Shown here: one piece after another, positions 3,044-20,731 of the stretch
Numbering within the stretch: position 1 is the first letter of the stretch
Layout of the letters: each line of letters begins with the position of its first letter
Virus record (IMG/VR): IMGVR_UViG_2585427789_000019
DNA: 23,165 nt
Reading direction: 5' to 3' (one strand)
DNA from: a virus
Lineage: Duplodnaviria > Heunggongvirae > Uroviricota > Caudoviricetes
Position numbers and translations under genes: made by a program
Notes under the pieces: generated by a model
The model's input: only the letters and a program-made list of their open reading frames with translations
The model's database searches: none
What the model was told of the DNA's origin: nothing

Positions 3044-3070
3044 AATAATAAAAAAGGAGCCTGTAGCTCC
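3044..3070 (-). terminator. Candidate intrinsic terminator inside the early-left operon
   Basis: On the minus strand, stem ggagc/gctcc (3056..3070, loop ctgta) is followed by a U-run (complement of aataataaaaaa at 3044..3055), between the 71-aa ORF and the TraR-like gene. Confidence 0.4.
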
Positions 3071-3092
3071 CTGATGATTTTGCTTTTCATGT

Positions 3093-3750: not shown

Positions 3751-3997
3751 TGCTTACTGGTTGGTTACCAACTTGTACCAGAACATGCGGGCCAATGCGC
3801 TGACTGACGCGGAATTACGGCGCAAGGCTGCCGATGAACTGTCCTGTATGACCGCGCGAATTAACCGTGGTGAGGCGATACCTGAACCAGTAAAACAACT
3901 TCCTGTCATGGGCGGTAGACCTCTAAATCGTGCACAGGCTCTGGCGAAGATCGCAGAAATCAAAGCTAAGTTCGGACTGAAAGGATCAAGTGTATGA
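3751..3997 (+). pseudogene. peaD: Replication protein P, C-terminal fragment
   Basis: Frame reads ...LVTNLYQNMRANALTDAELRRKAADELSCMTARINRGEAIPEPVKQLPVMGGRPLNRAQALAKIAEIKAKFGLKGSSV, matching the C-terminus of lambda P as I recall it; no N-terminal part and no ATG start; stop overlaps the ren ATG as in lambda. Confidence 0.75.
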
Positions 3998-4296
3998 CGG
4001 GCAAAGAGGCAATTATTCATTACCTGGGGACGCATAAGAGCTTCTGTGCACAGGACGTTGCCGCGGTAACAGGTGCAACCGTAACCAGCATAAATCAGGC
4101 TGCGGCTAAAATGGCGCGGGCAGGAATCCTGGTCGTTGATGGTAAGGTCTGGCGAACGGTGTATTACCGGTTCGCTACCAGAGAAGAACGGGAAGGAAAG
4201 GTGAGCACGAATCTGATTTTTAAGGAGTGTCGCCAGAGTGCCGCGATGAAACGGGTACTGAGGGTATATAAAAGAACATCAATGGGAACACAATGA
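3994..4296 (+). CDS. renD: Ren-like protein
   Basis: MTGKEAIIHYLGTHKSFCAQDVAAVTGATVTSINQAAAKMARAGILVVDGKVWRTVYYRFATREEREGK... matches lambda Ren; ATG at 3994 overlaps the P stop (ATGA). Confidence 0.8.
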   Translation: MTGKEAIIHYLGTHKSFCAQDVAAVTGATVTSINQAAAKMARAGILVVDGKVWRTVYYRFATREEREGKVSTNLIFKECRQSAAMKRVLRVYKRTSMGTQ

Positions 4297-4363
4297 TGAA
4301 ACAGGTGAGTTGAGTTCAAACTGTAGTACAATTCTCTCCCGTTTGAACAGGAAAGAATATGCT

Positions 4364-4696
4364 ATGAACCCTTATATTTATCTTGGTGGTGCAATACTTG
4401 CAGAGGTCATTGGTACAACCTTAATGAAGTTTTCAGAAGGTTTTACACGGTTATGGCCATCTGTTGGTACAATTATTTGTTATTGTGCATCATTCTGGTT
4501 ATTAGCTCAGACGCTGGCTTATATTCCTACAGGGATTGCTTATGGTATCTGGTCAGGAGTCGGTATTGTCCTGATTAGCTTACTGTCATGGGGATTTTTC
4601 GGCCAACGGCTGGACCTGCCAGCCATTATAGGCATGATGTTGATTTGTGCCGGTGTGTTGGTTATTAATTTATTGTCACGAAGCACACCACATTAA
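4364..4696 (+). CDS. emrE: Small multidrug resistance (SMR) efflux transporter EmrE
   Basis: 110 aa from the ATG at 4364 (aggaaag Shine-Dalgarno upstream): MNPYIYLGGAILAEVIGTTLMKFSEGFTRLWPSVGTIICYCASFWLLAQTLAYIPTGIAYGIWSGVGIVLISLLSWGFFGQRLDLPAIIGMMLICAGVLVINLLSRSTPH, four TM helices including the conserved membrane Glu. Confidence 0.9.
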   Translation: MNPYIYLGGAILAEVIGTTLMKFSEGFTRLWPSVGTIICYCASFWLLAQTLAYIPTGIAYGIWSGVGIVLISLLSWGFFGQRLDLPAIIGMMLICAGVLVINLLSRSTPH

Positions 4697-4726
4697 AATA
4701 ATTTGTTTCTAAACGACTAAAATATG

Positions 4727-4769
4727 GAGGCTCTTATATTTATATGAGCCTCGTTTTATGCTTTTTGTT
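4727..4769 (+). terminator. Intrinsic terminator downstream of emrE
   Basis: Stem gaggctc (4728..4734) / gagcctc (4746..4752) with an AT loop, followed by gttttatgctttttgtt. Confidence 0.55.
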
Positions 4770-4950
4770 AATGTCTTTATTTTTTATGTATTCTTTTGTG
4801 CTTTCAAGATTATGGCGTAAGAAAATTGCAATACGATTATTGTTGTATATTCAAGATAATGTGACCTTAATTGTCTTTTTAAATAAAAATTAAACAAAAA
4901 TTATATCCCACCACTAAGGTTTATAAAAGCATACGTTAGCAGGTGTCACC

Positions 4951-6477
4951 ATGAAAAAAGCCATAGCATATATGCGATTTTCATCACCAGGTCAGATGTC
5001 TGGCGACTCATTAAACCGACAGAGAAGACTTATTGCTGAATGATTAAAGGTAAATAGTGATTATTATCTTGATACCATAACATATGAAGATTTAGGATTA
5101 AGTGCATTCAAAGGAAAGCATGCACAATCAGGAGCTTTTTCGGAATTTTTAGATGCTATAGAGCATGGTTATATATTGCCAGGAACTACATTGTTAGTTG
5201 AAAGTCTGGACAGACTTTCAAGAGAAAAAGTCGGTGAAGCGATTGAACGTCTGAAATTGATTTTGAATCACAGTATTGATGTTATAACTCTTTGCGACAA
5301 TACAGTCTATAATATTGACTCTTTGAATGAGCCATATTCATTAATAAAAGCCATACTTATAGCACAAAGGGCAAATGAAGAAAGCGAGATAAAGTCAAGT
5401 CGGGTTAAATTATCATGGAAGAAAAAACGGCAGGATGCACTGGAATCAGGTACGATTATGACGGCGTCTTGTCCGAGATGGCTCTCCTTAGATGACAAAA
5501 GAACGGCTTTTGTTCCAGACCCCGACAGGGTGAAAACTATTGAGCTAATTTTTAAACTCAGGATGGAAAGGCGCTCATTGAATGCAATAGCCAAGTATTT
5601 AAATGATCATGCTGTAAAGAATTTCTCAGGAAAAGAAAGTGCATGGGGACCTTCTGTAATTGAAAAATTATTAGCGAATAAAGCTCTGATAGGTATATGC
5701 GTACCTTCATATCGTGCAAGAGGGAAAGGGATAAGTGAAATCGCTGGCTATTATCCCAGAGTCATATCAGATGATTTGTTTTACGCTGTACAGGAAATTC
5801 GGTTGGCACCTTTTGGTATTAGCAATAGTAGCAAGAATCCTATGCTAATAAATCTACTTCGAACAGTTATGAAGTGTGAGGCTTGTGGTAATACCATGAT
5901 TGTTCATGCGGTATCTGGAAGTTTGCATGGCTATTATGTTTGTCCGATGAGAAGATTACATCGATGTGACAGGCCATCAATAAAAAGAGATTTGGTTGAT
6001 TATAATATCATTAATGAATTGCTTTTTAATTGTAGCAAAATTCAACCAGTTGAAAACAAGAAAGATGCTAATGAAACTTTAGAGTTAAAAATTATTGAGC
6101 TTCAGATGAAAATTAATAATTTAATCGTTGCATTGTCTGTCGCGCCTGAAGTTACCGCTATAGCAGAGAAAATAAGACTATTAGATAAGGAATTACGAAG
6201 GGCTTCGGTATCATTGAAAACTTTGAAGAGTAAAGGTGTAAATTCATTCAGTGATTTTTATGCTATTGACTTAACCAGTAAAAATGGACGAGAGTTATGC
6301 CGTACACTTGCCTATAAAACATTCGAAAAAATCATAATTAATACGGATAATAAAACCTGTGATATCTATTTTATGAATGGCATTGTTTTTAAACACTATC
6401 CTTTAATGAAAGTAATATCCGCCCAGCAGGCGATAAGTGCTCTCAAATATATGGTTGATGGTGAGATTTATTTCTAA
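4951..6477 (+). pseudogene. ybcK: Serine recombinase YbcK-like, interrupted by an in-frame TGA at codon 31 (5041..5043)
   Basis: ATG at 4951 with aggtg Shine-Dalgarno gives MKKAIAYMRFSSPGQMSGDSLNRQRRLIAE, then TGA, then the same frame continues LKVNSDYYLDTITYEDLGLSAFKGKHAQSGAFSEFLDAIEHGYILPGTTLLVESLDRLSREK... to 6477 (508 codons if read through). The N-terminal piece carries the resolvase-type catalytic serine motif (YMRFSS..Q). Confidence 0.75.
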
Positions 6478-6858
6478 ATAATGATCTCGGATTTTAAGTT
6501 ATGCTATGGTGATAAAGTGCAAGACAGAATTAATTATCTTTGACGAAACTTAATGGGTAATTACTTTGTTTGCTCCCACAAGCGAGTTTTGTACGGCTGT
6601 ATTGGGGTAGTAAATGAGCTATACAATCTTAATCATTTGTTAGGTGAGAACTCTTGGTCGCAGATTCAAATACTGAAAATACGTGACAAATTATTATGAG
6701 CAAAATGGTGTATGTCACGTATTTTGAATGGTAGGTTAAAAAATAACACCGACTTTCGTAGGTATTACTAATAATAAAGCAGAGTTTTTAGATAGTATCA
6801 ATGTGCTTTGTGTATATTGTGGCAAATAATTGGGTTGGGGGTACAATTGTGATTGCTT

Positions 6859-6888
6859 TTGCATGAACATTGCGCCTTTATGCATAAT
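6859..6888 (+). promoter_or_regulatory. Candidate sigma70 promoter for ybcL
   Basis: TTGCAT (6859..6864), 18-bp spacer, CATAAT (6883..6888) preceded by TG, about 55 bp upstream of the ybcL ATG; pattern match only. Confidence 0.3.
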
Positions 6889-6941
6889 GAGATAAAGGAA
6901 TATCAAATAAAATAACGATAGGTCATAACAAAGAGGTTTTT

Positions 6942-7493
6942 ATGAAAACACTTATCGTTTCAACTGTATTGGCATTCATAACATTTTCTGCGCAGGCTGC
7001 AGCATTTCAGGTCACTAGTAATGAAATAAAAACAGGAGAGCAACTTACAACGTCTCATGTCTTTTCTGGATTTGGGTGTGAAGGTGGTAATACATCGCCC
7101 TCATTAACCTGGTCTGGTGTTCCTGAAGGTACCAAAAGCTTTGCCGTAACTGTATATGATCCAGATGCACCTACAGGCAGTGGTTGGTGGCATTGGACTG
7201 TTGTTAATATTCCAGCAACAGTAACATATTTGCCCGTTGATGCAGGGAGACGTGATGGAACAAAACTGCCGACTGGTGCTGTTCAAGGCCGAAATGATTT
7301 TGGCTATGCTGGGTTTGGTGGCGCATGTCCTCCTAAAGGAGATAAACCACATCATTACCAGTTTAAAGTATGGGCTCTAAAAACTGAAAAGATTCCTGTA
7401 GATTCTAACTCCAGCGGAGCGTTAGTTGGTTATATGCTTAATGCTAATAAAATCGCAACCGCTGAGATAACACCAGTTTATGAGATAAAGTAG
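6942..7493 (+). CDS. ybcL: Secreted PEBP/RKIP-family (UPF0098) protein YbcL
   Basis: 183 aa with an N-terminal signal peptide (MKTLIVSTVLAFITFSAQA) and PEBP-like motifs (DPDAP, HHY); aagagg Shine-Dalgarno before the ATG at 6942. Confidence 0.9.
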   Translation: MKTLIVSTVLAFITFSAQAAAFQVTSNEIKTGEQLTTSHVFSGFGCEGGNTSPSLTWSGVPEGTKSFAVTVYDPDAPTGSGWWHWTVVNIPATVTYLPVDAGRRDGTKLPTGAVQGRNDFGYAGFGGACPPKGDKPHHYQFKVWALKTEKIPVDSNSSGALVGYMLNANKIATAEITPVYEIK

Positions 7494-7502
7494 GGTGAGA
7501 GT

Positions 7503-8300
7503 ATGCTGGCAAGAGGTAAGACTAACTTAAAGATCGAAGAAATACGGATGCATAAACATCATGAGATTCATAGGGTTAAGCCTCTTATGCCAGCTTTGTG
7601 TCGTATCCGTCAGGGAAAGAAAGTTATCAATTGGGAGACGCATACTTTAACTGTTGATAATAATCAAATAATATTATTTCCTTGTGGTTATGAATTTTAT
7701 ATTGAGAATTATCCTGAAGCAGGGCTTTATCTTGCAGAAATGCTTTACTTACCCATTGATTTAATTGAGAGTTTCCAAAAACTTTATACGGTAACTGATC
7801 AAATACGTAACAAAACAAGTTTCTTTTTACCTCAGAATCCTGAGTTAATATATTGTTGGGAGCAACTAAAAACATCTGTTTCCCGAGGCTTCTCAACTAA
7901 AATTCAGGAGCACTTAGCAATGGGCGTTCTACTTTCGTTAGGAGTGAATCATGTTAATCATTTACTTTTATCATATAGTAAACAATCATTGATAAGTCGT
8001 TGTTATAACCTGCTGCTATCCGAACCCGGCACAAAATGGACAGCAAACAAGGTTGCTCGATATCTCTACATTTCTGTTTCTACATTACATCGCCGTCTAG
8101 CAAGCGAGGGGGTAAGTTTCCAAAGTATACTGGACGATGTGAGGTTAAATAATGCGTTGTCTGCTATACAAACGACGGTAAAACCTATAAGCGAGATTGC
8201 CAGAGAAAATGGTTATAAGTGTCCTTCTCGTTTTACTGAAAGATTTCATAATCGTTTTAATATAACACCAAGAGAGATAAGAAAAGCTTCCAGAGAGTAA
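7503..8300 (+). CDS. ybcM: AraC/XylS-family transcriptional regulator YbcM
   Basis: 265 aa with a C-terminal AraC-type HTH ([45 protein letters not shown]...[31 protein letters not shown]). Confidence 0.85.
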
Positions 8301-8416
8301 AAGTGTTTTAAGAAGGAGCAATTCTATCGATTTTGATTTTGGGAAATCAACACGGCATAATTATGTCACCGGAGCCTGAACAACTCCGGTGACTTCTGCG
8401 CTAAACGGGGACGTTT

Positions 8417-8518
8417 ATGCGCACATACAATCCAAACTCTCTTCTCCCTTCACAGATGCAGAAATGCACCTGCAATTCTTTGCATCTAGCGTTTGACCTC
8501 TGCGGAGGTGAAGCGTGA
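8417..8518 (+). CDS. ylcH: Small nin-region protein YlcH (33 aa)
   Basis: ATG at 8417; [33 protein letters not shown]; stop overlaps the ybcN GTG start. Recognised from DLP12 gene order as I recall it. Confidence 0.55.
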
Positions 8519-8970
8519 ACCTCTCACAAGACGGCATCAAATTACATCGCGGCAACTTCACCGCTATCGGTCGGCAGATCCAGCCTTATCTGGAGGAGGG
8601 CAAATGCTTTCGCATGGTGCTTAAACCGTGGCGTGAGAAACGCAGTCTTTCCCAGAATGCACTCAGCCACATGTGGTACAGCGAAATCAGTGAATACCTC
8701 ATCAGCAGGGGTAAAACGTTCGCCACTCCAGCTTGGGTAAAAGATGCTCTCAAACACACATATCTCGGTTATGAAACCAAAGACCTGGTTGATGTCGTAA
8801 CCGGTGATATCACCACTATCCAGTCGTTACGCCATACCTCCGACCTTGATACCGGAGAGATGTATGTCTTCCTGTGTAAGGTTGAAGCCTGGGCGATGAA
8901 TATTGGCTGCCACCTGACTATTCCGCAGAGCTGCGAGTTCCAGCTGCTGCGTGATAAGCAGGAGGCGTAA
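8515..8970 (+). CDS. ybcN: YbcN (nin-region protein, reported DNA base-flipping activity)
   Basis: 151 aa from the GTG at 8515 ([61 protein letters not shown]...), in the expected position before ninE. Confidence 0.8.
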
Positions 8971-9140
8971 TGGCTACACCGCTTATTCGTGTCATGAACG
9001 GACACATCTACAAAGTACCAAATCGTCGTAAGCGTAAGCCTGAGCTGAAACCATCCGAAATACCAACACTGCTCGGATATACCGCCAGCCTGGTTGATAA
9101 AAAATGGTTGCGACTGGCAGCAAGGAGGAATCATGGCTGA
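8970..9140 (+). CDS. ninE: NinE
   Basis: 56 aa, [56 protein letters not shown]; ATG overlaps the ybcN stop. Confidence 0.85.
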   Translation: MATPLIRVMNGHIYKVPNRRKRKPELKPSEIPTLLGYTASLVDKKWLRLAARRNHG

Positions 9141-9423
9141 TTTGAGAAAAGCAGCGCGTGGTCGGGAATGCCAGGTAAGAATCCCTGGCGTATGTAATGG
9201 CAATCCTGAAACGTCTGTACTGGCACATATCCGGCTGGCTGGATTGTGCGGTACCGGTATCAAACCGCCAGACCTGATTGCCACCATTGCATGTTCTGCC
9301 TGTCACGACGAGATCGACCGTCGCACGCATTTTGTTGACGCTGGATATGCAAAAGAATGCGCGCTGGAAGGTATGGCGAGAACGCAGGTTATCTGGCTGA
9401 AAGAGGGGGTAATTAAGGCGTGA
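9133..9423 (+). CDS. ybcO: YbcO (nin-region putative nuclease, Cys/His-rich)
   Basis: 96 aa from the ATG at 9133 with ggagg Shine-Dalgarno: [67 protein letters not shown]... Confidence 0.8.
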
Positions 9424-9782
9424 ATACCTACAATATCACATTACCCTGGCCGCCGAGCAATAATCGCTATTACCGCCATAATCGCGGGCGCACGCACATC
9501 AGCGCAGAGGGGCAGGCATACCGCGAAAACGTCGCCCGAATCATTAAAAACGCAATGCTGGATATCGGCCTGGCTATGCCTGTGAAAATCCGCATTGAGT
9601 GTCACATGCCGGATCGCCGTCGCCGTGACCTGGATAATCTACAAAAGGCCGCTTTTGACGCACTCACCAAAGCAGGTTTCTGGCTGGATGATGCTCAGGT
9701 CGTTGATTACCGCGTTGTGAAGATGCCGGTTGTCAAAGGTGGAAAGCTGGAACTGACCATCACTGAACAGGGAGATGAATGA
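9420..9782 (+). CDS. rusA: Holliday-junction resolvase RusA
   Basis: 120 aa from the GTG at 9420 ([97 protein letters not shown]...) with RusA catalytic Asp residues. Confidence 0.9.
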
Positions 9783-9919
9783 TGTTTGAGTTTTATATGG
9801 CAGAACTTCTTCGCCACCGCTGGATGCGCCTGCGCTTATATCGTTTCCCCGGTTCTGTTTTGACCGATTACCGAATACTGAAGAATTACGCCAAAACACT
9901 GACAGGAGCAGGAGTATGA
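9779..9919 (+). CDS. ylcG: Small nin-region protein YlcG (46 aa)
   Basis: [46 protein letters not shown]; ATG overlaps the rusA stop. Confidence 0.55.
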
Positions 9920-10004
9920 AGTCAGAGATAACAATCAACTAATACTGTTTTGTTGATTTTTGCTTGTAATTGGCGTTCTGGTCTGAGTTTTGTGGAGTAA
10001 GTTG

Positions 10005-10388
10005 ATGCGTGATATTCAGATGGTTCTTGAGCGTTGGGGAGCGTGGGCGGCTAATAATCATGAAGATGTGACCTGGTCGTCCATTGCCGCCGGTTTTAAG
10101 GGATTAATTCCTTCAAAAGTAAAATCTCGCCCACAATGTTGTGACGATGACGCGATGATCATTTGCGGGTGCATGGCCCGTCTGAAAAAGAACAACAGCG
10201 ATTTGCATGATTTATTAGTAGATTATTATGTAGTCGGTATGACATTCATGTCACTGGCAGGTAAGCATTGCTGCTCTGATGGTTATATCGGGAAAAGGTT
10301 ACAGAAGGCTGAGGGCATAATTGAAGGGATGTTAATGGCATTAGATATCCGGTTAGAGATGGATATCGTTGTTAATAACTCTAATTAA
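10005..10388 (+). CDS. quuD: Q-like late-gene antiterminator
   Basis: 127 aa from the ATG at 10005 (ggag Shine-Dalgarno at 9994): [62 protein letters not shown]..., Cys-rich zinc-binding region typical of Q proteins, positioned after the nin region. Confidence 0.85.
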
Positions 10389-10421
10389 TATGCCAATTGT
10401 TTACTAAAAATTATTAAAAAT

Positions 10422-10450
10422 GGGGCGTTGAGACGCCCCCAAAAATAAAG
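10422..10450 (-). terminator. Intrinsic terminator for the minus strand (likely nmpC)
   Basis: Perfect 7-bp GC stem ggggcgt/acgcccc (10422..10439, loop tgag); on the minus strand it is followed by AUUUUUAAUAAUUUUU. Confidence 0.55.
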
Positions 10451-10527
10451 GGTAATATATAACAGAAGGTTTATATAGTTAGAAGCAAGGTTGTGCTTCT
10501 AAAGGAAGTGGCTTGAGGGAGCCACTT

Positions 10528-10567
10528 ATATGTTGGGGAGGCAAAGCCTCCCGCAACATATCTTTTT
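10528..10567 (+). terminator. Intrinsic terminator for the plus strand (candidate tR'-like terminator downstream of quuD)
   Basis: Long hairpin atatgttggggaggc-aaa-gcctcccgcaacatat (10528..10561) followed by cttttt. Confidence 0.55.
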
Positions 10568-10577
10568 CGTAATCAGA

Positions 10578-11660
10578 TTAGAACTGATACACCAGACCTA
10601 CAGCGACGATGTCGTCGGTATCAATACCAGCTGTTTTGGTAAACTTACTATCGTCAATTAAGTTGATTTTGTAATCAACAAAAGTGGACATGTTTTTATT
10701 AAAGTAGTAAGTAGCACCGACATCGACATACTTGACTAAGTCTCGGTCACCATGAACACCAAGGTCTTTACCTTTTGACTGAAGGTAAGCAACAGATGGT
10801 CGCAGACCGAAGTCAAACTGATATTGTGCTACTGCTTCAAAGTTTTGTGCTTTGTTTGCAATATGGTTATTACCAAAAACGGTCATATTCTGAGTTTCAG
10901 AATATGTGGTAGCCAGATAGATATTGTTCGCATCATATTTCAGGCCTGCAGCCCATACTTCCGCATTTTTGCCGGAGGCATTGAATTTGCTCTTACCATA
11001 GGCGACCTGACCGTCAGTGCGATCTGATTTAGCATAGGTTGCACCCACGCCGAATCCTTCATACTCATAAGTAGTGGAGAAACCGAAACCATCACCATTG
11101 GCTTCAGTTACGTCAGTGCGGTCATTTTTACCCTGATACTGAGCAGCAAAGTTCAGGCCATCGACCAGACCAAAGAAGTCGTTGTTACGATAGGTTGCAA
11201 CACCAGTGGTGCGACCAGTCATGAACACATCTGTTTGGGTCCAGGTATCGCCACCGAATTCTGGCAGAACGTCAGTCCACGCACCGATGTCGTATGCTAC
11301 ACCGTAGTTACGGCCGTAATCGATTGAGCCGTAGTCACCGAATTTCAGGCCTGCAAATGCAAGACGGGTTTTGTCTTTGGAGGAACCTTGAGATTCAGCG
11401 CGGTTGCCTTTGAATTCATATTCCCACTGACCGAAACCAGTCAGTTGATCGTTGATTTGGGTTTCACCTTTGAAGCCAAGACGGGCATAAGTAGTATCAC
11501 CATCATCTGCATCGTTAGAGGAAAAGTAGTGCTTGGCATTAACTTTCCCGTACAGATCCAGCTTGTTACTGTCTTTATTATAAATTTCAGCTGCCTGAGC
11601 AGACATCGCCATCAGTACTGATGCAGCTACAGCAGAAATTGCCACTGTTAATTTTTTCAT
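10578..11660 (-). CDS. nmpC: OmpC/OmpF-family outer-membrane porin (NmpC-type), apparently intact
   Basis: 360 aa with signal peptide ([23 protein letters not shown]), porin beta-strand pattern and C-terminal ...VGLVYQF; uninterrupted reading frame. Confidence 0.9.
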
Positions 11661-12248
11661 CGTGAGCCCTTTTTTTTGAACTATTATTAAAAAATGATGT
11701 CACTGCGCGATAAATATTCATCTAATCAATGTGATTATTTCAAGATGTAAGTTTTAGTTTCTCATTTAATTTGTGAAGTAGATCTCTATTTTTATCTGAA
11801 CTTTTTCTATCGAAACCTATTTATGGCTCTTATTTGAACAAAAATAAACCTATTAGCTAATTTATATTAATGGCTGTTATTTATGGGGGTTCTATAATTC
11901 AGTGGTTTAATTTAAATCAACCAAAAATAACGCCGGAAATTATTTATTGGTTATTTGTTGAGGTTTTCTTATATATTTGTGGTGGTGTTTTGAACACTCG
12001 GTAGCATTCTCATAAATATCATTCAGTGGTTTACGTACGTAAAAAATTGGTTATGCTGTTAAGAGTGGTTACTTCGTCACACAGCTTAAACCCGCCGTCG
12101 AGCTGGTTTTTCCATTTTTTGAGTCTCGATATTAGCTGATAACTCAATACCTGAGTTATTCACTGACTCCGAGTCTGTTACGTTTCTGCTTTTTTGCGAT
12201 ACGTTGTATTCCCTCAATTTACACCCGCTTTGTCTGCGAGGTGGGGTT

Positions 12249-12464
12249 ATGAAATCCATGGATAAGTTAACAACGGGTGTCGCCTATGGCACCTCAGCAG
12301 GTAGTGCCGGTTACTGGTTTTTACAGCTGCTCGATAAAGTCACGCCCTCACAGTGGGCAGCAATAGGTGTGCTGGGTAGCCTGGTATTTGGCCTGCTGAC
12401 GTACCTGACAAACCTTTATTTCAAGATTAAAGAAGATAAGCGCAAGGCTGCGAGAGGTGAATAA
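12249..12464 (+). CDS. essD: Holin (phage 21 S-type pinholin)
   Basis: 71 aa from the ATG at 12249: [71 protein letters not shown]; two TM segments, immediately before the endolysin. Confidence 0.85.
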
Positions 12465-12961
12465 TGCCTCCATCATTACGAAAAGCCGTTGCTGCTGCTA
12501 TTGGTGGCGGAGCAATTGCTATAGCATCAGTGTTAATCACTGGCCCAAGTGGTAACGATGGTCTGGAAGGTGTCAGCTACATACCATACAAAGATATTGT
12601 TGGTGTATGGACTGTATGTCACGGGCATACAGGAAAAGACATCATGCTCGGTAAAACGTATACCAAAGCAGAATGCAAAGCCCTCCTGAATAAAGACCTT
12701 GCCACGGTCGCCAGACAAATTAACCCGTACATAAAAGTTGATATACCGGAAACAACGCGCGGCGCTCTTTACTCGTTCGTTTACAACGTGGGCGCTGGCA
12801 ATTTCAGAACATCGACGCTTCTTCGCAAAATAAACCAGGGCGATATCAAAGGCGCATGTGATCAGCTACGTCGCTGGACATATGCTGGCGGTAAGCAATG
12901 GAAAGGTCTCATGACTCGTCGTGAGATTGAGCGTGAAATCTGTTTGTGGGGTCAGCAATGA
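12464..12961 (+). CDS. rrrD: SAR endolysin (T4-lysozyme-type, phage 21 R-like)
   Basis: 165 aa; N-terminal Gly/Ala-rich signal-anchor-release segment ([20 protein letters not shown]) followed by a lysozyme catalytic region. Confidence 0.9.
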
Positions 12962-13419
12962 ACAGAGTAACCGCGATTATCTCCGCTCTGGTTATCTGCA
13001 TCATCGTCTGCCTGTCATGGGCTGTTAATCATTACCGTGATAACGCCATTACCTACAAAGCCCAGCGCGACAAAAATGCCAGAGAACTGAAGCTGGCGAA
13101 CGCGGCAATTACTGACATGCAGATGCGCCAGCGTGATGTTGCTGCACTGGATGAAAAATACACGAAGGAGTTAGCTAATGCGAAAGCTGAAAATGATGCT
13201 CTGCGTGATGATGTTGCCGCTGGTCGTCGTCGGTTGCACATCAAAGCAGTCTGTCAGTCAGTGCGTGAAGCCACCACCGCCTCCGGCGTGGATAATGCAG
13301 CCTCCCCCCGACTGGCAGACACCGCTGAACGGGATTATTTCACCCTCAGAGAGAGGCTGATCACTATGCAAAAACAACTGGAAGGAACCCAGAAGTATAT
13401 TAATGAGCAGTGCAGATAG
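12958..13419 (+). CDS. rzpD: Spanin, inner-membrane subunit (Rz)
   Basis: 153 aa from the ATG at 12958 (overlaps the rrrD stop); N-terminal TM helix then a coiled-coil periplasmic domain. Confidence 0.85.
13178..13360 (+). CDS. rzoD: Spanin, outer-membrane lipoprotein subunit (Rz1), embedded in rzpD in the +1 frame
   Basis: 60 aa, [24 protein letters not shown]... lipobox LVVVGC and proline-rich C-terminus ([15 protein letters not shown]). Confidence 0.8.
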
Positions 13420-13450
13420 AGCTGCCCATATCGATGGGCAACTCATGCAA

Positions 13451-13744
13451 TTATTGTGAGCAATACACACGCGCTTCCAGCGGAGTATAAATGCCTAAAG
13501 TAATAAAACCGAGCAATCCATTTACGAATGTTTGCTGGGTTTCTGTTTTAACAACATTTTCTGCGCCGCCACAAATTTTGGCTGCATCAACAGTTTTCTC
13601 CTGTCCAATTCCCGAAACGAAGAAGTGATGGGTGATGGTTTCCTTTGGTGTTACTGCTGTCGGTTTGTTTCCAACAGTAAACGTCTGTTGAGCACATCCT
13701 GTAATAAGCATTGCCAGAGCGGCAGAAAACAACATTTTTTTCAT
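13451..13744 (-). CDS. borD: Bor lipoprotein (serum-resistance family)
   Basis: 97 aa from the ATG at 13744: MKKMLFSAALAMLITGCAQQTFTVGNKPTAVTPKETITHHFFVSGIGQEKTVDAAKICGGAENVVKTETQQTFVNGLLGFITLGIYTPLEARVYCSQ; lipobox ITGC. Confidence 0.9.
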   Translation of the reverse strand: MKKMLFSAALAMLITGCAQQTFTVGNKPTAVTPKETITHHFFVSGIGQEKTVDAAKICGGAENVVKTETQQTFVNGLLGFITLGIYTPLEARVYCSQ

Positions 13745-14105
13745 CTTATTATCCTGCATTGTTAAAAACGGCAGAATCCTATGTGACAAAAATTAAACGA
13801 TAGTTAAATGGATTGATGAAAATTAAAACTATATAGGTGGATGCTCAGCCTATTGGAGGAGGGGGGGGCACTCAGAATCCTGTGGAATGAAATAAACCGC
13901 TCTTTCTGTCCATTACCCTTTTAGCTGCGCTGTATCGTCGCCGTATTCCCGCATTAACCATGACCGTAGCCCGACGGGGAATTCCTTCTGCGTGAGTGTG
14001 CGGGAATAATCAAAAACGATGCACACCGGGTTTTACTGTGCTGACAGACGCAGGGTTACCCTCATAGTCGCTTTTCCGGTGCGATGGTGGAAGAAACCGG
14101 GATGT

Positions 14106-14300
14106 TTATTCATCATCACTCTGGATTGATGTATATGCTCTCTTTTCTGACGTTAGTCTCCGACGGCAGGCTTCAATGACCCAGGCTGAGAAATTCCCAG
14201 ACCCTTTTTGCTCAAGAGCGATGTTAATTTGTTCAATCATTTGGTTAGGAAAGCGGATGTTGCGGGTTGTTGTTCTGCGGGTTCTGTTCTTAGTTGACAT
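14106..14300 (-). CDS. ylcI: Small ribbon-helix-helix-like protein (YlcI-like, 64 aa)
   Basis: MSTKNRTRRTTTRNIRFPNQMIEQINIALEQKGSGNFSAWVIEACRRRLTSEKRAYTSIQSDDE; basic N-terminus and RHH-like pattern. Gene symbol assigned from position and size as I recall them. Confidence 0.55.
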   Translation of the reverse strand: MSTKNRTRRTTTRNIRFPNQMIEQINIALEQKGSGNFSAWVIEACRRRLTSEKRAYTSIQSDDE

Positions 14301-14464
14301 GAGGTTGCCCCGTATTCAGTGTCGCTGATTTGTATTGTCTGAAGTTGTTTTTACGTTAAGTTGATGCAGATCAATTAATACGATACCTGCGTCATAATTG
14401 ATTATTTGACGTGGTTTGATGGCGTAGATGCACGTTGTGACATGTAGATGATAATTATTATCAT

Positions 14465-14690
14465 TTTGCGGGTCCTTTCCGGCGATCCGACAGGTTACGG
14501 GGCGGCGACCTCGCGGGTTTTCGCTATTTATGAAAATTTTCCGGTTTAAGGCATTTCCGTTCTTCTTCGTCGTAACTTAATGTTTTTATTTAAAATACCC
14601 CCTGAAAAGAAAGGAAACGACAGGTGCTGAAAACGAGCTTTTGGGCCTCTGTCGTTTCCTTTCTCTGTTTTTGGCCGTGGAATGAACAAT
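14465..14690. other. Lambda-type cohesive end site (cosQ-cosN-cosB)
   Basis: cgatccgacaggttacg followed by GGGCGGCGACCT (cosN, 14499..14510) and cgcgggttttcgctatttatgaaaattttccggtttaagg..., near-identical to the lambda right-end/left-end junction as I recall it, running into the Nu1 start. Confidence 0.75.
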
Positions 14691-15264
14691 GGAAGTCAAC
14701 AAAAAGCAGCTGGCTGACATTTTCGGTGCGAGTATCCGTACCATTCAGAACTGGCAGGAACAGGGAATGCCCGTTCTGCGAGGCGGTGGCAAGGGTAATG
14801 AGGTGCTTTATGACTCTGCCGCCGTTATAAGATGGTATGCCGAAAGGGATGCTGAAATTGAGAACGAAAAGCTGCGCCGGGAAGTTGAAGAACTGCGGCA
14901 GGCCAGCGAGACAGATCTCCAGCCAGGGACTATTGAGTACGAACGCCATCGACTTACGCGTGCGCAGGCCGACGCACAGGAGCTGAAAAATGCCAGAGAC
15001 TCCGCTGAAGTGGTGGAAACCGCATTCTGTACTTTCGTGCTGTCGCGGATCGCAGGTGAAATTGCCAGTATTCTCGACGGGATCCCCCTGTCGGTGCAGC
15101 GGCGTTTTCCGGAACTGGAAAACCGACATGTTGATTTCCTGAAACGGGATATCATCAAAGCCATGAACAAAGCAGCCGCGCTGGATGAACTGATACCCGA
15201 ACACGGCACTGGTCGGCGTGCAGGTGGACTCGGAGCAGTTCGGCAGCCAGCAGGTGAGCCGTAA
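14689..15264 (+). CDS. nohD: Terminase small subunit (Nu1 homologue) with a non-native C-terminal tail from a deletion junction
   Basis: [71 protein letters not shown]... matches lambda Nu1 through ...[14 protein letters not shown], then diverges ([21 protein letters not shown]) as the frame runs into J-derived DNA. Confidence 0.8.
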
Positions 15265-18040
15265 TTATCATCTTCGCGGGCGCATTCTGCAGGTGCCGTC
15301 GAACTATAACCCGCAGACGCGGCAATACAGCGGTATCTGGGACGGAACGTTTAAGCCGGCATACAGCAACAACCCGGCCTGGTGTCTGTGGGATATGCTG
15401 ACCCACCCGCGCTACGGCATGGGGAAACGTCTTGGTGCGGCGGATGTGGATAAATGGGCGCTGTATGTCATCGGCCAGTACTGCGACCAGTCAGTGCCGG
15501 ACGGTTTTGGCGGCACGGAGCCGCGCATCACCTGTAATGCCTACCTGACCACGCAGCGTAAGGCGTGGGATGTGCTCAGTGATTTCTGCTCGGCGATGCG
15601 CTGTATGCCGGTATGGAACGGGCAGACGCTGACGTTCGTGCAGGACCGACCATCAGATAAGGTGTGGACCTATAACCGCAGTAATGTGGTGATGCCGGAT
15701 GATGGCGCGCCGTTCCGCTACAGCTTCAGCGCCCTGAAGGACCGCCATAATGCCGTTGAGGTGAACTGGATTGACCCGAATAACGGCTGGGAGACGGCGA
15801 CAGAGCTTGTTGAAGATACGCAGGCCATTCTCCGTTACGGTCGTAACGTCACGAAGATGGATGCCTTTGGCTGTACCAGCCGGGGGCAGGCACACCGCGC
15901 CGGGCTGTGGCTGATTAAAACGGAGCTGCTGGAAACGCAGACCGTGGACTTCAGCGTGGGTGCCGAAGGGCTTCGCCATGTACCGGGCGATGTCATTGAA
16001 ATCTGCGATGATGACTATGCCGGTATCCGCACCGGCGGGCGCGTGCTGGCGGTAAACAGCCAGACCCGGACGCTGACGCTCGACCGTGAAATCACGCTGC
16101 CATCTTCCGGCACCACGCTGATAAGCCTGGTTGACGGGCAGGGGAGTCCGGTCAGCGTGGAGGTTCAGTCCGTCACCGACGGCGTGAAGGTGAAAGTGAG
16201 CCGTGTTCCTGACGGCGTTGCTGAATACAGCGTATGGGGGCTGAAGCTGCCGACGTTGCGCCAGCGCCTGTTCCGCTGCGTGAGTATCCGTGAGAACGAC
16301 GACGGCACGTATGCCATCACCGCCGTGCAGCATGTACCGGAAAAAGAGGCCATCGTGGATAACGGGGCGCACTTTGACGGCGACCAGAGCGGCACGGTAA
16401 ATGGTGTCACGCCGCCAGCGGTGCAGCACCTGACCGCAGAAGTCACCGCAGACAGCGGGGAATACCAGGTGCTGGCCCGCTGGGATACGCCGAAGGTGGT
16501 GAAGGGCGTGAGCTTCCTGCTTCGCCTGACCGTGGCAGCGGATGACGGCCGTGAGCGACTGGTCAGCACGGCCCGGACGACGGAAACCACTTACCGCTTC
16601 ACACAACTGGCTCTGGGGAACTACAGGCTGACAGTCCGGGCAGTAAATGCGTGGGGGCAGCAGGGCGAGCCGGCGTCGGTATCGTTCCGGATTGCCGCAC
16701 CGGCAGCGCCGTCGCAGATTGAGCTGACACCGGGGTATTTTCAGATAACCGCCACGCCGCATCTTGCGGTTTATGATCCGACGGTACAGTTTGAGTTCTG
16801 GTTCTCGGAAAAGCGGATTGCGGATATCAGGCAGGTTGAAACCACAGCACGCTATCTTGGCACGGCGCTGTACTGGATAGCCGCCAGTATCAATATCAAA
16901 CCGGGCCATGATTATTATTTTTACATCCGCAGTGTGAACACCGTTGGCAAATCGGCATTCGTGGAGGCTGTTGGCCAGCCGAGTGATGATGCATCCGGCT
17001 ATCTGAATTTTTTCAAAGGAGAGATAGGGAAAACCCATCTGGCTCAGGAGTTGTGGACGCAGATTGATAACGGTCAGCTTGCGCCTGACCTGGCGGAAAT
17101 CAGAACGTCCATCACGGATGTCAGTAATGAAATCACGCAGACCGTCAATAAGAAACTGGAAGACCAGAGTGCGGCAATCCAGCAGATACAGAAGGTTCAG
17201 GTTGATACAAATAATAACCTGAACAGCATGTGGGCTGTGAAGCTGCAGCAGATGCAGGACGGACGCCTTTATATCGCGGGTATTGGTGCCGGTATTGAGA
17301 ATACCCCTGACGGTATGCAGAGTCAGGTGCTGCTGGCGGCGGACAGGATTGCGATGATTAATCCTGCGAATGGCAACACAAAGCCGATGTTTGTTGGTCA
17401 GGGCGATCAGATATTCATGAACGAAGTGTTCCTGAAATATCTGACGGCTCCCACCATTACCAGCGGCGGTAATCCTCCGGCATTTTCCCTGACACCGGAC
17501 GGGCGGCTGACGGCGAAAAATGCCGATATTAGCGGTAACGTGAATGCGAACTCCGGGACGCTCAACAACGTCACGATTAACGAGAACTGCCGGGTTCTGG
17601 GAAAACTGTCCGCGAACCAGATTGAAGGCGATCTCGTTAAAACAGTGGGCAAAGCTTTCCCCCGGGACTCCCGTGCACCGGAGCGGTGGCCATCAGGGAC
17701 CATTACCGTCAGGGTTTATGACGATCAGCCGTTTGACCGGCAAATTGTTATTCCGGCGGTGGCATTCAGTGGCGCTAAACATGAGCAAGATCATACTGAT
17801 ATCTACTCCTCATGCCGTCTGATAGTACGAAAAAACGGTGCTGAAATTTATAACCGAACGGCTCTGGATAATACGCTGATATATACGGGTGTTATTGATA
17901 TGCCTGCAGGCAGTGGTGTAATGACACTGGAATTTTCTGTATCGGCATGGCTGGTAAATGGCTGGTATCCCACAGCAAGTATCAGCGATTTGCTGGTTGT
18001 GGTGATGAAGAAAGCCACTGCAGGCATCATGATTAGCTGA
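15218..18040 (+). CDS. J: Tail-tip host-specificity protein J, N-terminally truncated fragment (about 940 codons); probably a non-functional remnant
   Basis: ...[108 protein letters not shown]... matches internal lambda J sequence as I recall it; no native N-terminus or Shine-Dalgarno, and the frame opens at the nohD junction. Confidence 0.85.
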
Positions 18041-18059
18041 ATTTTATAACCCAGATACG

Positions 18060-18084
18060 GGCGCCAGAAATGGCGCCTTTTTTA
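18060..18084 (+). terminator. Intrinsic terminator after J
   Basis: Stem ggcgcca/tggcgcc with loop gaaa (18060..18077) followed by tttttt. Confidence 0.6.
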
Positions 18085-18098
18085 TTTGTGGAGTGAAT

Positions 18099-20444
18099 AT
18101 GGCAGTACAGATTTCAGGTGTGCTGAAAGATGGTGCGGGAAAACCAATACAGAACTGCACTATTCAACTGAAGGCAAAGCGTAACAGCACCACGGTACTG
18201 GTGAACACGGTGGCCTCTGAAAATCCGGATGAAGCCGGGCGTTACAGCATGGATGTTGAGCATGGCCAGTACAGCGTCACCCTGCTGGTTGAAGGTTTTC
18301 CGCCTTCACATGCCGGAACCATTACCGTCTATGAAGGTTCCAGACCAGGTACGCTGAATGATTTTCTCGGTGCCATGACGGAAGATGATGTCATGCCGGA
18401 GGCATTGCGTCGTTTTGAGGCAATGGTGGAAGAAGCGGCACGCAACGCCGAAGCCGCCTCTCAGAGCGCAGCGGCGGCAAAGAAATCCGAAACTGCAGCG
18501 GCATCATCGAAGAACGCGGCGAAAACCTCAGAAACGAATGCAGCTAACAGCGCACAGGCGGCAGCGTCCTCGCAGACTGCATCGGCAAACTCCGCGACAG
18601 CAGCCAAAAAATCAGAAACCAACGCGAAAAACAGCGAGACAGCCGCAAAGACGAGCGAAACCAACGCAAAGTCCAGCCAGACGGCAGCGAAAACCAGCGA
18701 AACGAATGCCAAAGCCAGTGAAACTGCGGCGAAAAATAGCCAGAATGCAGCAGCCGAAAGCGAGAGCGCGGCAGCCGGTTCTGCGACTGCAGCAGCTGGA
18801 TCAGCAACTGCTGCGGCTAACAGCCAGAAAGCAGCGAAGACGAGCGAAACTAACGCAAAGTCCAGCCAGACGGCAGCGAAGACCAGCGAAACAAATGCCA
18901 AAGCCAGCGAAACTGCGGCGAAAAGCAGTCAGGATGCAGCAGCCGAAAGCGAGAGTGCTGCAGCTGGTTCTGCAAGTGCGGCGGCTGCTTCTGCCACTGC
19001 ATCAGCAAACAGTCAAAAAGCTGCAAAAACCAGTGAAACCAATGCAAAGACAAGCGAGACTGCAGCGGCGAACTCGGCGCAAGCATCGGCAGCAAGCCAG
19101 ACAGCAGCTAAAGCAAGTGAGGATGCAGCCAGAGAGTATGCAAGCCAGGCAGCAGAGCCGTATAAATATGTCTTACAGCCACTGCCTGATGTGTGGATAC
19201 CGTTTAACGATTCACTGGATATGCTTGCTGGCTTTTCGCCTGGTTATAAGCAAATAACCGTAGGTGATGATGTTATTAAAATGCCATCCGATAAGGTTGT
19301 TAGCTTCAAACGCGCATCAGGTGCAACATACATTAATAAATCAGGTGTATTAACCGTTGCTGAAGTTGACGAACCGCGATTTGAACGAGAAGGTTTGCTG
19401 ATTGAAGGACAGAGAACAAACTATTTCAGAAATTCAAATACACCAGAAGCATGGAATAACACGGGTAGTGTGTCTGTTGAGTCGTTCGACAGTGATAAGG
19501 GGTTTAACTATGGAAGGATAACTGTTATTAATGAAAATCCGACAGCACAAGGATATCAGGCAATTGCTGTAAACACGAATGATGCTTACACCTGCCCGGC
19601 AGGTTCTTATACGACGATATCGTGTCTGACGAAAAGTGATAATTCCCGGTGTCGTGCAAGGTTCGGAAAAATGTCTGATAATGGTGCGTTTGTTTTTCAT
19701 TCAGATGCAGTTCTGGATCCTGTTACGGGAAATGTTGTTCATGGAAATAATGTGACGGTGACGGCAGAAAGAGTCGGTGAATGGTGGTTGTTTACCGCCA
19801 CTCTTTTTGCAGATGCGGAAATGATAATCAGCTCAAGATTTGAAATCCTGGCGATGCCTGGAATCAGTATTATCCCCAATGGCTCTACGTTAGATATTGC
19901 GATGCCTCAGGCGGAGATTGGGTCGTACAGGACGTCATTTATCATTACTGAAGGGGCTCCTGGCACTCGCTCCAGCGACATGGTGACAATACCTGTAAGA
20001 AACAATATTCACCGATTACCATTCAGTGCTCTTGTTGAAGTTAATAAAAACTGGGATATCCCTCCCAGCAAATCACCATTAATCTTTAATGTTAAAGATT
20101 ATCAGGAAAATGGTCTGTTCACGCATGGATTCCGTGGTAATAATTTCTCTGATGCCGGTTCTCCTTTTATTTCTATGGGAGGGTGTAATAAATATGTGGC
20201 AACAACCCAGAGGAAAATCATTTCAGGCTTCCGTTGTGGCGCTGATGGAGATGTTCAGGCCGTATGTAATGGTGAATTATCTGTTGCGGCAAAAACAACA
20301 TGGACTTCAATTGTTCCACGGGCAGTATTGCGAATTGGAGGGCAGGGCACTAATGGGGAGTATCATCTTTTTGGTCATATCCGTAATCTGCGTATCTGGC
20401 ATAAAGAATTAACTGATGCGCAAATGGGGGAGAGTATTAAATGA
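18099..20444 (+). CDS. stf: Side tail fibre protein (lambda Stf-like N-terminus, Ala/Ser-rich repeat shaft, non-lambda C-terminal domain)
   Basis: ATG at 18099 with ggag Shine-Dalgarno; MAVQISGVLKDGAGKPIQNCTIQLKAKRNSTTVLVNTVASENPDEAGRYSMDVEHGQYSVTLLVEGFPPSHAGTITVYEGSRPGTLNDFLGAMTEDD... matches the Stf N-terminus; followed by AAKTSETNAK-type repeats. Confidence 0.85.
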   Translation: MAVQISGVLKDGAGKPIQNCTIQLKAKRNSTTVLVNTVASENPDEAGRYSMDVEHGQYSVTLLVEGFPPSHAGTITVYEGSRPGTLNDFLGAMTEDDVMPEALRRFEAMVEEAARNAEAASQSAAAAKKSETAAASSKNAAKTSETNAANSAQAAASSQTASANSATAAKKSETNAKNSETAAKTSETNAKSSQTAAKTSETNAKASETAAKNSQNAAAESESAAAGSATAAAGSATAAANSQKAAKTSETNAKSSQTAAKTSETNAKASETAAKSSQDAAAESESAAAGSASAAAASATASANSQKAAKTSETNAKTSETAAANSAQASAASQTAAKASEDAAREYASQAAEPYKYVLQPLPDVWIPFNDSLDMLAGFSPGYKQITVGDDVIKMPSDKVVSFKRASGATYINKSGVLTVAEVDEPRFEREGLLIEGQRTNYFRNSNTPEAWNNTGSVSVESFDSDKGFNYGRITVINENPTAQGYQAIAVNTNDAYTCPAGSYTTISCLTKSDNSRCRARFGKMSDNGAFVFHSDAVLDPVTGNVVHGNNVTVTAERVGEWWLFTATLFADAEMIISSRFEILAMPGISIIPNGSTLDIAMPQAEIGSYRTSFIITEGAPGTRSSDMVTIPVRNNIHRLPFSALVEVNKNWDIPPSKSPLIFNVKDYQENGLFTHGFRGNNFSDAGSPFISMGGCNKYVATTQRKIISGFRCGADGDVQAVCNGELSVAAKTTWTSIVPRAVLRIGGQGTNGEYHLFGHIRNLRIWHKELTDAQMGESIK
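18648..19026 (+). repeat. Imperfect 189-bp tandem duplication (63 codons x 2) inside stf, itself built from 21-bp Ala/Ser/Thr-rich sub-repeats
   Basis: Units beginning aagacgagcgaaac at 18648 and 18837 are near-identical for the first 120 bp or so (KTSETNAKSSQTAAKTSETNAKASETAAK.S...AAAESESAAAGSA...). Confidence 0.8.
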
Positions 20445-20722: not shown

Positions 20723-20731
20723 GGGAGACAA

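Follow-up and report, generated by a model that had tools for sequence, protein, structure and literature searches.

The window, by which the whole analysed stretch of 23,165 nucleotides is meant, contains an outer membrane porin gene, nmpC, located within a DLP12-type prophage integrated at argU. The gene occupies the minus strand between two phage genes of the plus strand: quuD (10005..10388), encoding a Q-type late antiterminator of 127 amino acids (Pfam PF06530, E=8.5e-54), and essD (12249..12464), which opens the lysis cassette and encodes a phage 21-type holin (Pfam PF04971, E=2e-35). Both assignments are also those of the BL21 and K-12 annotations. QuuD is 78–80% identical to the Q proteins of the Stx-converting phages 06-3462 and Ss-VASD, with the homology ending at about position 10368 and the last ~22 residues of the phage proteins being absent from QuuD. 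The porin cassette (window ~10369..12028, roughly 1.66 kb) has limits that are sharp and conserved, one within this 3' end of Q and the other exactly at the -35 element of the late promoter pR'; it would replace the last ~22 codons of Q and place 1.66 kb between the antiterminator gene and its cognate promoter. The prophage is defective here, its integrase gene being split by IS679. The same IS679/integrase junction is found in FDAARGOS_1059, the prophage of which differs and carries a 365-aa porin.

Uninterrupted by stop codons from its initiating ATG onwards, the nmpC coding sequence (10578..11660, minus strand) specifies an Lc-type general porin of 360 amino acids. The Pfam Porin_1 profile (PF00267) covers the protein over profile positions 1–337 of 337 (E=1.9e-151, 504.7 bits against a cut-off of 23.7). 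It scores 521 bits with the NCBIfam OmpC model NF007841 (cut-off 484 bits), which is a subfamily model and not an equivalog, and does not reach the NCBIfam equivalog cut-offs for PhoE and OmpF. The signal peptide comprises residues 1–23, ending in SAQA and followed by AEIYNK; residue 1 of the mature OmpC crystal chains pairs with residue 24, and residues 24–360 align with these chains end to end (E ~6e-137). The C-terminus reads GLVYQF, where YQF with its terminal Phe represents the beta-barrel assembly signal. As counted by hand on the alignment with the OmpC chain 2xe2_A, in OmpC numbering, NmpC retains the basic constriction residues K16, R37, R74 and R124, the acidic residues D105 and E109 of loop L3 that lie opposite them, and the PEFGG motif of L3. 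Solved OmpC chains assemble as trimers of 16-stranded beta-barrels, and pores of the same build would be expected of NmpC in the outer membrane. For pore formation by NmpC, the reference list of PMC8144880 cites Hindahl 1984. This open reading frame is an intact prophage nmpC, encoding a general porin of the OmpC/OmpF class.

The original prediction held that this frame is uninterrupted and that the gene of E. coli K-12 is inactivated by IS5. Both statements were borne out by alignment to the K-12 locus: in MG1655 the IS5 element sits 58 nt before the gene end, while the copy in the window is full-length and without IS5. The IS5 target CTAA of K-12 (ACT AAA) reads ACC AAA in the window. In BL21(DE3) it is IS1A that interrupts the gene, at window position ~11082–11090, and the other top B-strain matches show the same split porin. 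This site (11082..11090), occupied in the B strains BL21 (by annotation) and REL606 (in the published study), is empty here; the inserted segment of 777 bp comprises the 768-bp element and a target duplication of 9 bp. Neither IS5 nor IS1 was found in the window nmpC upon alignment to the K-12 and BL21 loci. The window lacks the 777-bp IS1A and therefore matches the published 'reactivated' allele of REL606.

Downstream of the stop codon, in a part of the locus that the original prediction had missed, lies the nmpC 3' UTR, corresponding to ipeX (10411..10577, minus strand, 167 nt). It ends in a Rho-independent terminator, with the stem at 10422..10439, found by a terminator scan, and an adjoining U-tract; four more hairpins precede the terminator hairpin. 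The minimum free energy of the fold is -64 kcal/mol, compared with -31 for shuffled sequences (z=-9.1). A search of Rfam with E values up to 1 over 9900..12600 matched no family, the ipeX region included, and ipeX was identified here by K-12 homology and by its fold. The literature describes ipeX as a 167-nt element of DLP12 that is part of the porin transcript and represses OmpC and OmpF, and attributes it to both PA-2 and DLP12. A location of pR' directly after quuD (10389..10577), which would send late transcripts antisense through nmpC, was rejected, because this stretch is occupied by the nmpC 3' UTR and its terminator and the homology to Stx-phage pR' is found at 12029..12111.

On the other side of the gene, nmpC and essD are separated by 588 bp of non-coding DNA with 33.5% G+C; the window as a whole has 45.5%. 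As some 9% of all 588-bp segments of the sequence reach or exceed this AT content, the spacer is AT-rich but not extreme. The description of this gap as an AT-rich regulatory region of some 590 bp upstream of the porin is correct in length, in its non-coding character and in its extent up to the lysis gene essD. It applies, however, to the porin-side ~368 bp, which hold the nmpC promoter, PnmpC, and not to the right ~220 bp, which consist of pR', tR' and the essD leader. The boundary is visible in the base composition, with 28% G+C in the porin-side 368 bp (11661..12028) and 42–43% in the following 220 bp (12029..12248). On composition and homology, the spacer thus appears to be two separate control regions, a porin promoter and a phage late promoter. 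A 44-aa open reading frame (11870..12004) and the 'hypothetical proteins' annotated within the spacer in phage records are regarded as non-genes, with no Pfam match. One such 'hypothetical protein' of a phage record overlaps pR'/tR'.

The region comprising the nmpC 5' UTR and PnmpC (11661..11870, minus strand) has 25.7% G+C and is 94–100% identical to the corresponding sequences of K-12, Nissle, phage Turner and others. A consensus sigma-70 scan of 10300..12350 found no canonical promoters against 4.9 expected. Hexamers read by hand give a tentative -35 element TTGAAA (11743..11738) and a tentative -10 element GAATAT/AATATT (~11719..11713), with a candidate G near 11706–11708 where transcription may start. 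A CRP-like candidate site, AGAGATCTACTTCACA, may be present at 11787..11772 on the minus strand. For K-12, PMC11677980 reports that deletion of -199..-1 abolishes PnmpC activity, that the start mapped by 5'RACE is a G, and that PnmpC drives the IS5 transposase gene; it lists CRP as an activator with two sites and OmpR, IHF and MprA as repressors. Between the divergent promoters lies an AT-rich spacer (11871..12028; 31.6% G+C), where the intergenic DNA varies most, with 84–97% identity between alleles. It is probably part of an H-NS-bound tract, as judged from K-12, in which the nmpC/essD 'promoter island' was H-NS-bound in all compiled ChIP studies and belongs to a class of islands whose transcription is described as suppressed (PMC3661553). 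These ChIP data make the suggested H-NS binding plausible. The H-NS motif TCGATAAATT, with up to two mismatches allowed, is not enriched in the window (19 matches against 30 expected), and the spacer contains a single match, with two mismatches.

The right part of the spacer resembles phage late control regions. The putative pR' (12030..12057, plus strand) consists of a -35 element TTTACG, a 16-nt spacer and a -10 element TATGCT and is recognised by its Stx-phage homology. In a distant blastn search with 355 matching phage records, most had 12029..12111 (query 369–451) at their Q/pR' junction; the phage annotations underlying the assignment of pR' and tR' carry the labels 'putative' or 'possible' themselves ('Putative late promoter pR'' in OP797663 and KR781488). 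The late transcript would first meet a tR'-like terminator (12086..12112, plus strand), which was placed by alignment to an annotated 'possible rho-independent terminator'. In the window, T at 12104 breaks the canonical tR' stem that is present in K-12 and Stx phages: the K-12 sequence folds with -12.0 kcal/mol, whereas the window sequence gives an alternative fold of -6.5 kcal/mol. T12104 may weaken tR', and the lysis cassette might then be leaky. The remaining stretch before the essD start codon (12113..12248, plus strand) was assigned as the leader of the lysis operon by homology to Shigella phage SfII; the segment 12034..12243 (query 374–583) is 74% identical to the sequence upstream of the SfII holin gene. 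SfII has no porin at this position, and neither do the Stx phages with an annotated pR' beside Q.

The sequence itself shows that the frame is intact, that the pore residues, the promoter and the 3' UTR are conserved, and where the cassette begins and ends; for expression, its regulation, the binding of H-NS and the activity of IpeX, the statements made here draw on published studies of identical or near-identical DNA. In NCM3722, a K-12 strain with intact nmpC, NmpC makes up ~2% of the proteome, 200-fold above MG1655; it is the major porin of NCM3722 under carbon limitation, while OmpC is >10-fold higher in MG1655 (PMC8144880). REL606 clones from which the 777-bp IS1A has been excised express nmpC mRNA and behave as more cefotaxime-permeable (bioRxiv 10.64898/2026.08.19.745717). 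The nmpC homologues of CFT073 are induced at 37 °C at the RNA and protein level, and nmpC is preferentially expressed at 37 °C in K-12 MC4100 as well. By analogy, the window nmpC is very probably expressed, and the earlier suggestion that it may be is, on the published K-12 and B-strain data, a likely one. Expression could depend strongly on conditions, because the K-12 spacer is an H-NS-bound, suppressed 'promoter island'.

Taken together, these data make it very likely that the locus is a complete porin 'moron' cassette of a DLP12-type lambdoid prophage, transcribed from PnmpC and replacing the host porins with NmpC. The cassette would comprise PnmpC, the gene for the 360-aa NmpC and ipeX, set in reverse orientation between quuD and quuD's own late promoter pR'. 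A lysogen should transcribe nmpC-ipeX from PnmpC, because neither IS5 nor IS1 interrupts the gene, and expression should peak under carbon limitation, since PnmpC of K-12 is activated by CRP. After export, NmpC would enter the outer membrane as a major diffusion pore, and the ipeX portion of the transcript would lower OmpC and OmpF post-transcriptionally, the net effect being that the prophage would swap the host porins for its own. The pay-off might be the removal of OmpC as a receptor, that is superinfection exclusion, together with altered permeability.

The most serious alternative is that nmpC is intact but quiescent, with H-NS on the AT-rich upstream region silencing it nearly always, so that the porin has no role in the outer membrane. 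The suppressed-type, H-NS-bound island at the K-12 nmpC/essD spacer (PMC3661553), the 28% G+C of the porin-side spacer and the lack of a canonical sigma-70 match all agree with this. However, PnmpC of K-12 yields a 5'RACE product and drives the IS5 transposase gene (PMC11677980), NmpC reaches ~2% of the NCM3722 proteome (PMC8144880), nmpC mRNA of REL606 appears upon loss of IS1 (bioRxiv 10.64898/2026.08.19.745717), and the CFT073 homologues are detected as protein. Lasting quiescence is thus improbable. It is highly improbable that the whole 588-bp spacer serves as a single long regulatory region of the porin. The spacer is indeed non-coding and AT-rich overall, and several regulators of PnmpC have been reported, but the AT-richness is limited to 11661..12028, and the remaining part aligns with other kinds of sequence: 12029..12111 with the putative pR' and terminator located by Q in porin-less Stx phages, and 12034..12243 with the DNA preceding the holin gene of SfII. 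Furthermore, deletion of -199..-1 alone is reported to abolish PnmpC activity in K-12 (PMC11677980).

The open reading frame could also be taken for host ompC or a chromosomal paralogue, since PGAP names intact copies 'ompC: porin OmpC' and the protein scores above the NCBIfam cut-off for the OmpC subfamily. That model is, however, not an equivalog, the exact protein is also named 'porin protein LC', and the 'ompC' label stems from an annotation rule and not from the locus. The position of the gene between quuD and essD within the argU-integrated DLP12, and the presence of the same gene in the same place in 45 phage genomes, leave this reading with hardly any probability.

The cassette is widespread. 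Among phage genomes, 45 have nmpC in this position, and the order Q, reversed porin, spacer and holin is the same in the 36 phage records with a query coverage of 80% or more. Public contigs with the exact NmpC protein number at least 1000, the names given being 'porin OmpC' or 'outer membrane porin protein LC', and the copy of Nissle 1917 has the identical protein sequence; in ~46% of complete E. coli genomes there is a match to 80% or more of the gene, and full-length nmpC alleles of E. coli number ~2500. The alleles appear to fall into two families, between which the 3' half of the gene shows 77–85% nucleotide identity and the 5' half 92–99%, while across the families the promoter is 94–100% and ipeX 94–99% identical; pR' is 99–100% conserved among the compared nmpC loci. 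The exchange in the 3' half, assigned to loops L4–L8, would point to recurrent recombination or to diversifying selection on the exposed face and, if true, could serve, for example, the evasion of other phages or of host antibody. A joint reading, in which the cassette splits Q from pR', allele exchange is restricted to the loops and lysis is leaky through T12104, is speculative and rather doubtful as a whole.

The expression of NmpC is of interest since it alters the exposed pores of the cell, with consequences for antibiotic influx (cefotaxime, in the REL606 revertants) and for carbon-limited growth (NCM3722), and it also affects reported heat resistance and the receptors for phages and colicins. 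Through ipeX, nmpC expression lowers OmpC and OmpF as well. For annotation, the RefSeq name 'ompC' masks the prophage nmpC/Lc identity of such genes, and the spacer beside nmpC should be seen as carrying both a porin promoter and a phage late promoter, two distinct controls. The locus is a textbook lysogenic-conversion cassette, correctly identified as such, and nothing in it constitutes a new discovery.

The solved structures of OmpC, OmpF, PhoE and OmpK36 align with NmpC over the full length (E=1e-137 to 1e-111), and the L4/L5 region of NmpC is shorter than that of the aligned OmpC, as indicated by alignment gaps; unlike these porins and OmpD of Salmonella, nmpC resides in a prophage and is served by a promoter of its own. 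The K-12 nmpC, b0553 of DLP12 (qsr'), occupies the same locus, with quuD and essD as neighbours. The K-12 protein is 365 amino acids long and 90.7% identical to the 360-aa protein of the window; the first 148 residues are identical, and the differences beyond them form discrete patches in the C-terminal half, including two indels, which are assigned here to loops L4–L8. At the DNA level the 3' half of the coding sequence is only ~79% identical to K-12, compared with ~94% for the 210 bp upstream of the gene (97–100% in the proximal ~90 bp) and 99.4% for ipeX over 173 nt, with a single mismatch at 10545. For E. coli B, the coding sequence of the top match, an IS1A-carrying strain with the B-type split-porin annotation, is 100% identical after removal of IS1A, REL606 matches window positions 1379..23165 at 100.0%, IS1 aside, and the BL21 spacer differs from that of the window at one position, 11922. 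The phages Turner, ev207, 4A7 and Lambda_4C10 share the same layout with 92–97% identity over 1.9 kb, the Turner spacer being 99.2% identical to that of the window; these phages are plaque-forming, whereas the cassette of the window lies in a defective prophage. The Lc porin of the lambdoid phage PA-2 is linked to this gene by the name 'porin protein LC' and by the attribution of ipeX. The intact nmpC cassette is an ordinary and already described element, common both in E. coli and in plaque-forming lambdoid phages.

The nmpC gene (10578..11660, minus strand) is an open reading frame of 360 codons with an ATG start and no internal stops, and three independent comparisons agree in showing that its product is a complete porin. 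The Pfam Porin_1 match spans the whole profile (1-337 of 337, E=1.9e-151), the score against the NCBIfam OmpC-subfamily model is 521 bits with a cut-off of 484 bits, and the protein aligns, from residue 24 through to its C-terminal end, with the complete mature OmpC, OmpK36, PhoE and OmpF crystal chains (E-values from 6e-137 to 3.5e-111). In the alignment to chain 2xe2_A, with residues numbered by counting along the printed alignment, the mature N-terminus AEIYNK, the basic residues K16, R37, R74 and R124, the acidic D105 and E109 of L3, the PEFGG motif and the C-terminal YQF are all kept. What the original prediction of an intact gene had named as its refutation, a frameshifted or truncated frame when set against functional porins, was not found, since the porin matches run full length with these residues kept. 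Its statement that IS5 interrupts the K-12 gene was also correct: nmpC of MG1655 (b0553) is an annotated pseudogene, with IS5 splitting it 58 nt short of the end. The corresponding site in the window (about 10636) is empty, as is the IS1 site of B strains (~11082-11090). The IS5 target tetranucleotide CTAA of K-12 (codons ACT AAA) is absent from the window allele, which reads ACC AAA at ~10633..10640; three other CTAA sites are left in the coding sequence.

The window is a DLP12-type prophage, with the same neighbours as in K-12 DLP12, namely ybcL, ybcM, ybcN, ninE, ybcO, rusA, ylcG and quuD upstream and essD, rrrD, rzpD and bor/iss downstream. For 10400..12300, the E. coli genomes that match best are those of B-lineage laboratory strains (BL21, REL606 and their derivatives, 99.9% identity), where the porin is split by IS1A among the top matches listed. 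Identity over 1379..23165 is 100.0% to REL606 (IS1 aside), AST19, EC0026B, MIN14 and strain C from cow's milk. Positions 1..1378 are part of the IS66-family element IS679 (tnpA, tnpB and the start of the transposase gene); the prophage integrase is split because this element inserted in its gene at junction 1378/1379, leaving a remnant reading frame at 1325..2251 (minus strand). This junction together with the window's version of DLP12 occurs in no complete E. coli genome of the collection searched; FDAARGOS_1059 has the same junction with a different prophage.

Intact nmpC copies are very common. The exact window protein is present on at least 1000 public contigs, is identical to the porin of Nissle 1917, and heads a UniRef entry of 252 members; the protein goes by the name 'porin OmpC' or 'outer membrane porin protein LC'. 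The coding sequence (at least 80% of its 1083 nt) was matched in 2503 of the 5426 complete E. coli genomes, and nearly all full-coverage matches of a spread sample were in a single piece and annotated as an intact porin. RefSeq names the prophage copies 'ompC' on account of the subfamily model; their position is in the prophage and not at chromosomal ompC. Isolated phages are among the 45 phage records that show the order Q gene, reverse-oriented porin and holin gene.

Results published for near-identical DNA indicate that such an intact gene would be expressed. In NCM3722, a K-12 strain with intact nmpC, NmpC makes up ~2% of the proteome, 200x its level in MG1655, and belongs to the 'C-sector' proteins of carbon limitation, the condition in which it is the major porin; OmpC is more abundant in MG1655 than in NCM3722, by a factor of more than 10 (PMC8144880). 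These data fit both activation by CRP and repression of OmpC of the IpeX type. When REL606 was selected with cefotaxime, the loss of its 777-bp IS1A reached fixation within seven transfers and turned on nmpC mRNA, with growth and resistance phenotypes that the authors credit to higher drug permeability (bioRxiv 10.64898/2026.08.19.745717); the resulting IS1A-free allele matches the window at 100.0%. The CFT073 homologues of nmpC show preferential expression at 37 C, in RNA as well as in protein.

The structured stretch 3' of the porin gene is ipeX, an RNA listed for DLP12 and PA-2 with a length of 167 nt. From the nmpC stop codon to the terminator, 167-173 nt form a chain of stable hairpins, with a minimum free energy of -64 kcal/mol vs -31 kcal/mol for shuffled sequences (z=-9.1), and end in an intrinsic terminator (stem 10422..10439 followed by a U-tract, minus strand). 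The K-12 stretch differs from the window by a single base, at 10545. In MG1655, IS5 sits within the nmpC reading frame and precedes ipeX on the porin transcript; because the transcript is continuous here, the porin and ipeX should be co-expressed.

The gap between nmpC and the essD ATG (12249) is 588 bp long with 33.5% G+C, compared with 45.5% for the window. The original prediction of a long AT-rich regulatory region holds for composition, but not for a single porin region: the porin-side 368 bp (11661..12028) have 28.3% G+C and 12029..12248 have 42-43%, and the latter carry late-promoter homology. When the spacer was compared with phage genomes by distant blastn, 355 records matched, most of them only over 12029..12111 (query 369-451), which falls at the end of the Q gene in Stx-converting phages. 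Two annotated records place a 'putative late promoter pR'' on the aligned stretch, one also a 'possible rho-independent terminator', and the annotation of one Stx-phage Q gene calls it 'similar to Q protein of bacteriophage H19B and DLP12'. Alignment to these phages gives, on the plus strand, a putative pR' with -35 TTTACG (12030..12035) and -10 TATGCT (12052..12057), followed by the conserved initially transcribed TAAGAGTGGTTAC and a tR'-like terminator (~12086..12112). In Shigella phage SfII, the region 5' of the holin gene, where there is no porin, is 74% identical to 12034..12243. Because of both homologies, the right-hand ~220 bp are assigned to the lysis operon, as its control region and leader, rather than to porin regulation. 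The first terminator has T at 12104 where K-12 has G (GCTGG vs GCGGG); by folding, the canonical 8-bp hairpin of K-12 (-12.0 kcal/mol) is lost and only an alternative of -6.5 kcal/mol is left, which may make lysis-gene expression leakier and Q-independent. BL21 also has this T, as do phage Turner and an O103:H2 prophage, both 100% identical to the window over 12029..12112.

Porin regulation belongs to the left-hand part. In K-12, one study places the sigma-70 promoter PnmpC within 199-210 bp upstream of the nmpC ATG, with a G start mapped by 5'RACE, two activating CRP sites and repressing OmpR, IHF and MprA sites, and describes it as strong enough to drive the nested IS5 transposase gene (PMC11677980). 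The K-12 segment is 94% identical to the window (97-100% in the proximal ~90 bp), and that of phage Turner 100%. A consensus scan found no canonical promoter in 10300..12350; read by hand on the minus strand, we infer a candidate -35 TTGAAA (11743..11738), a -10 GAATAT/AATATT (~11719..11713), a G start near 11706-11708 and a CRP-like site (11787..11772) centred near -72.5. Codons 5-7 contain CAGTGGC (11647..11641, minus strand), which we take to be a 7-nt complement to the 5' seed of the sRNA RybB, in line with published accounts that name nmpC mRNA among the targets of RybB. The suggestion of H-NS binding is supported for the homologous K-12 spacer between nmpC(-) and essD(+), one of 78 'promoter islands' bound by H-NS 'according to all studies' (PMC3661553); the window itself adds composition only. 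An H-NS motif search gave no enrichment. Of all 588-bp stretches in the window, the one richest in A+T is not this spacer but 21882..22470 (25.5% G+C), ending just inside a 249-aa reading frame from 22416, presumably appY judging by K-12 gene order; the K-12 tfaX/appY and appY/ompT spacers are likewise listed as H-NS-bound promoter islands.

The observation of an intact nmpC is confirmed and its earlier interpretation is right in essence, though incomplete on the spacer and with ipeX missed. Intact nmpC/Lc porins, their expression and regulation, H-NS occupancy and IpeX are already published; the residual points are modest, being the apparent cassette boundaries, a possible loop-restricted allele exchange and the predicted weakening of tR' by T at 12104. 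Among eight alleles compared, the porin is essentially invariant up to residue 148, and the variable patches (149-151, 182-187, 216-227, 263-267, 302-312 and 335-347) all lie in the C-terminal half, where we assign them to surface loops L4-L8. At the DNA level the alleles form a mosaic: nucleotide identity between the 360-aa and 365-aa allele families is 77-85% in the 3' half of the coding sequence (10578..11215), and among the loci compared, the 5' half (11216..11660) has 92-99%, ipeX 94-99%, PnmpC 94-100% and pR'/tR' 99-100%.

Compared with Stx-converting phages, the DNA homology ends at ~10368 and restarts at 12029, a point that in those phages precedes the stop codon of Q by 13 nt and overlaps the pR' -35; the ancestral overlap of Q stop codon and -35 can still be made out at 12029..12042. 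Two such phages have Q proteins 78-80% identical to QuuD, which ends 17-22 residues early and whose last six residues show no relation to theirs. Because the homology breaks and resumes in this way, the porin unit (terminator-ipeX-nmpC-PnmpC, ~1.66 kb, 10369..12028) appears to be a reverse insert between the antiterminator gene and its own promoter pR'. SfII (L005) has a different, unannotated reverse reading frame of 340 aa without a Pfam domain (421..1443, minus strand), directly upstream of the pR'-through-leader homology ahead of the holin gene, which suggests that this position may be a recurrent cargo site.
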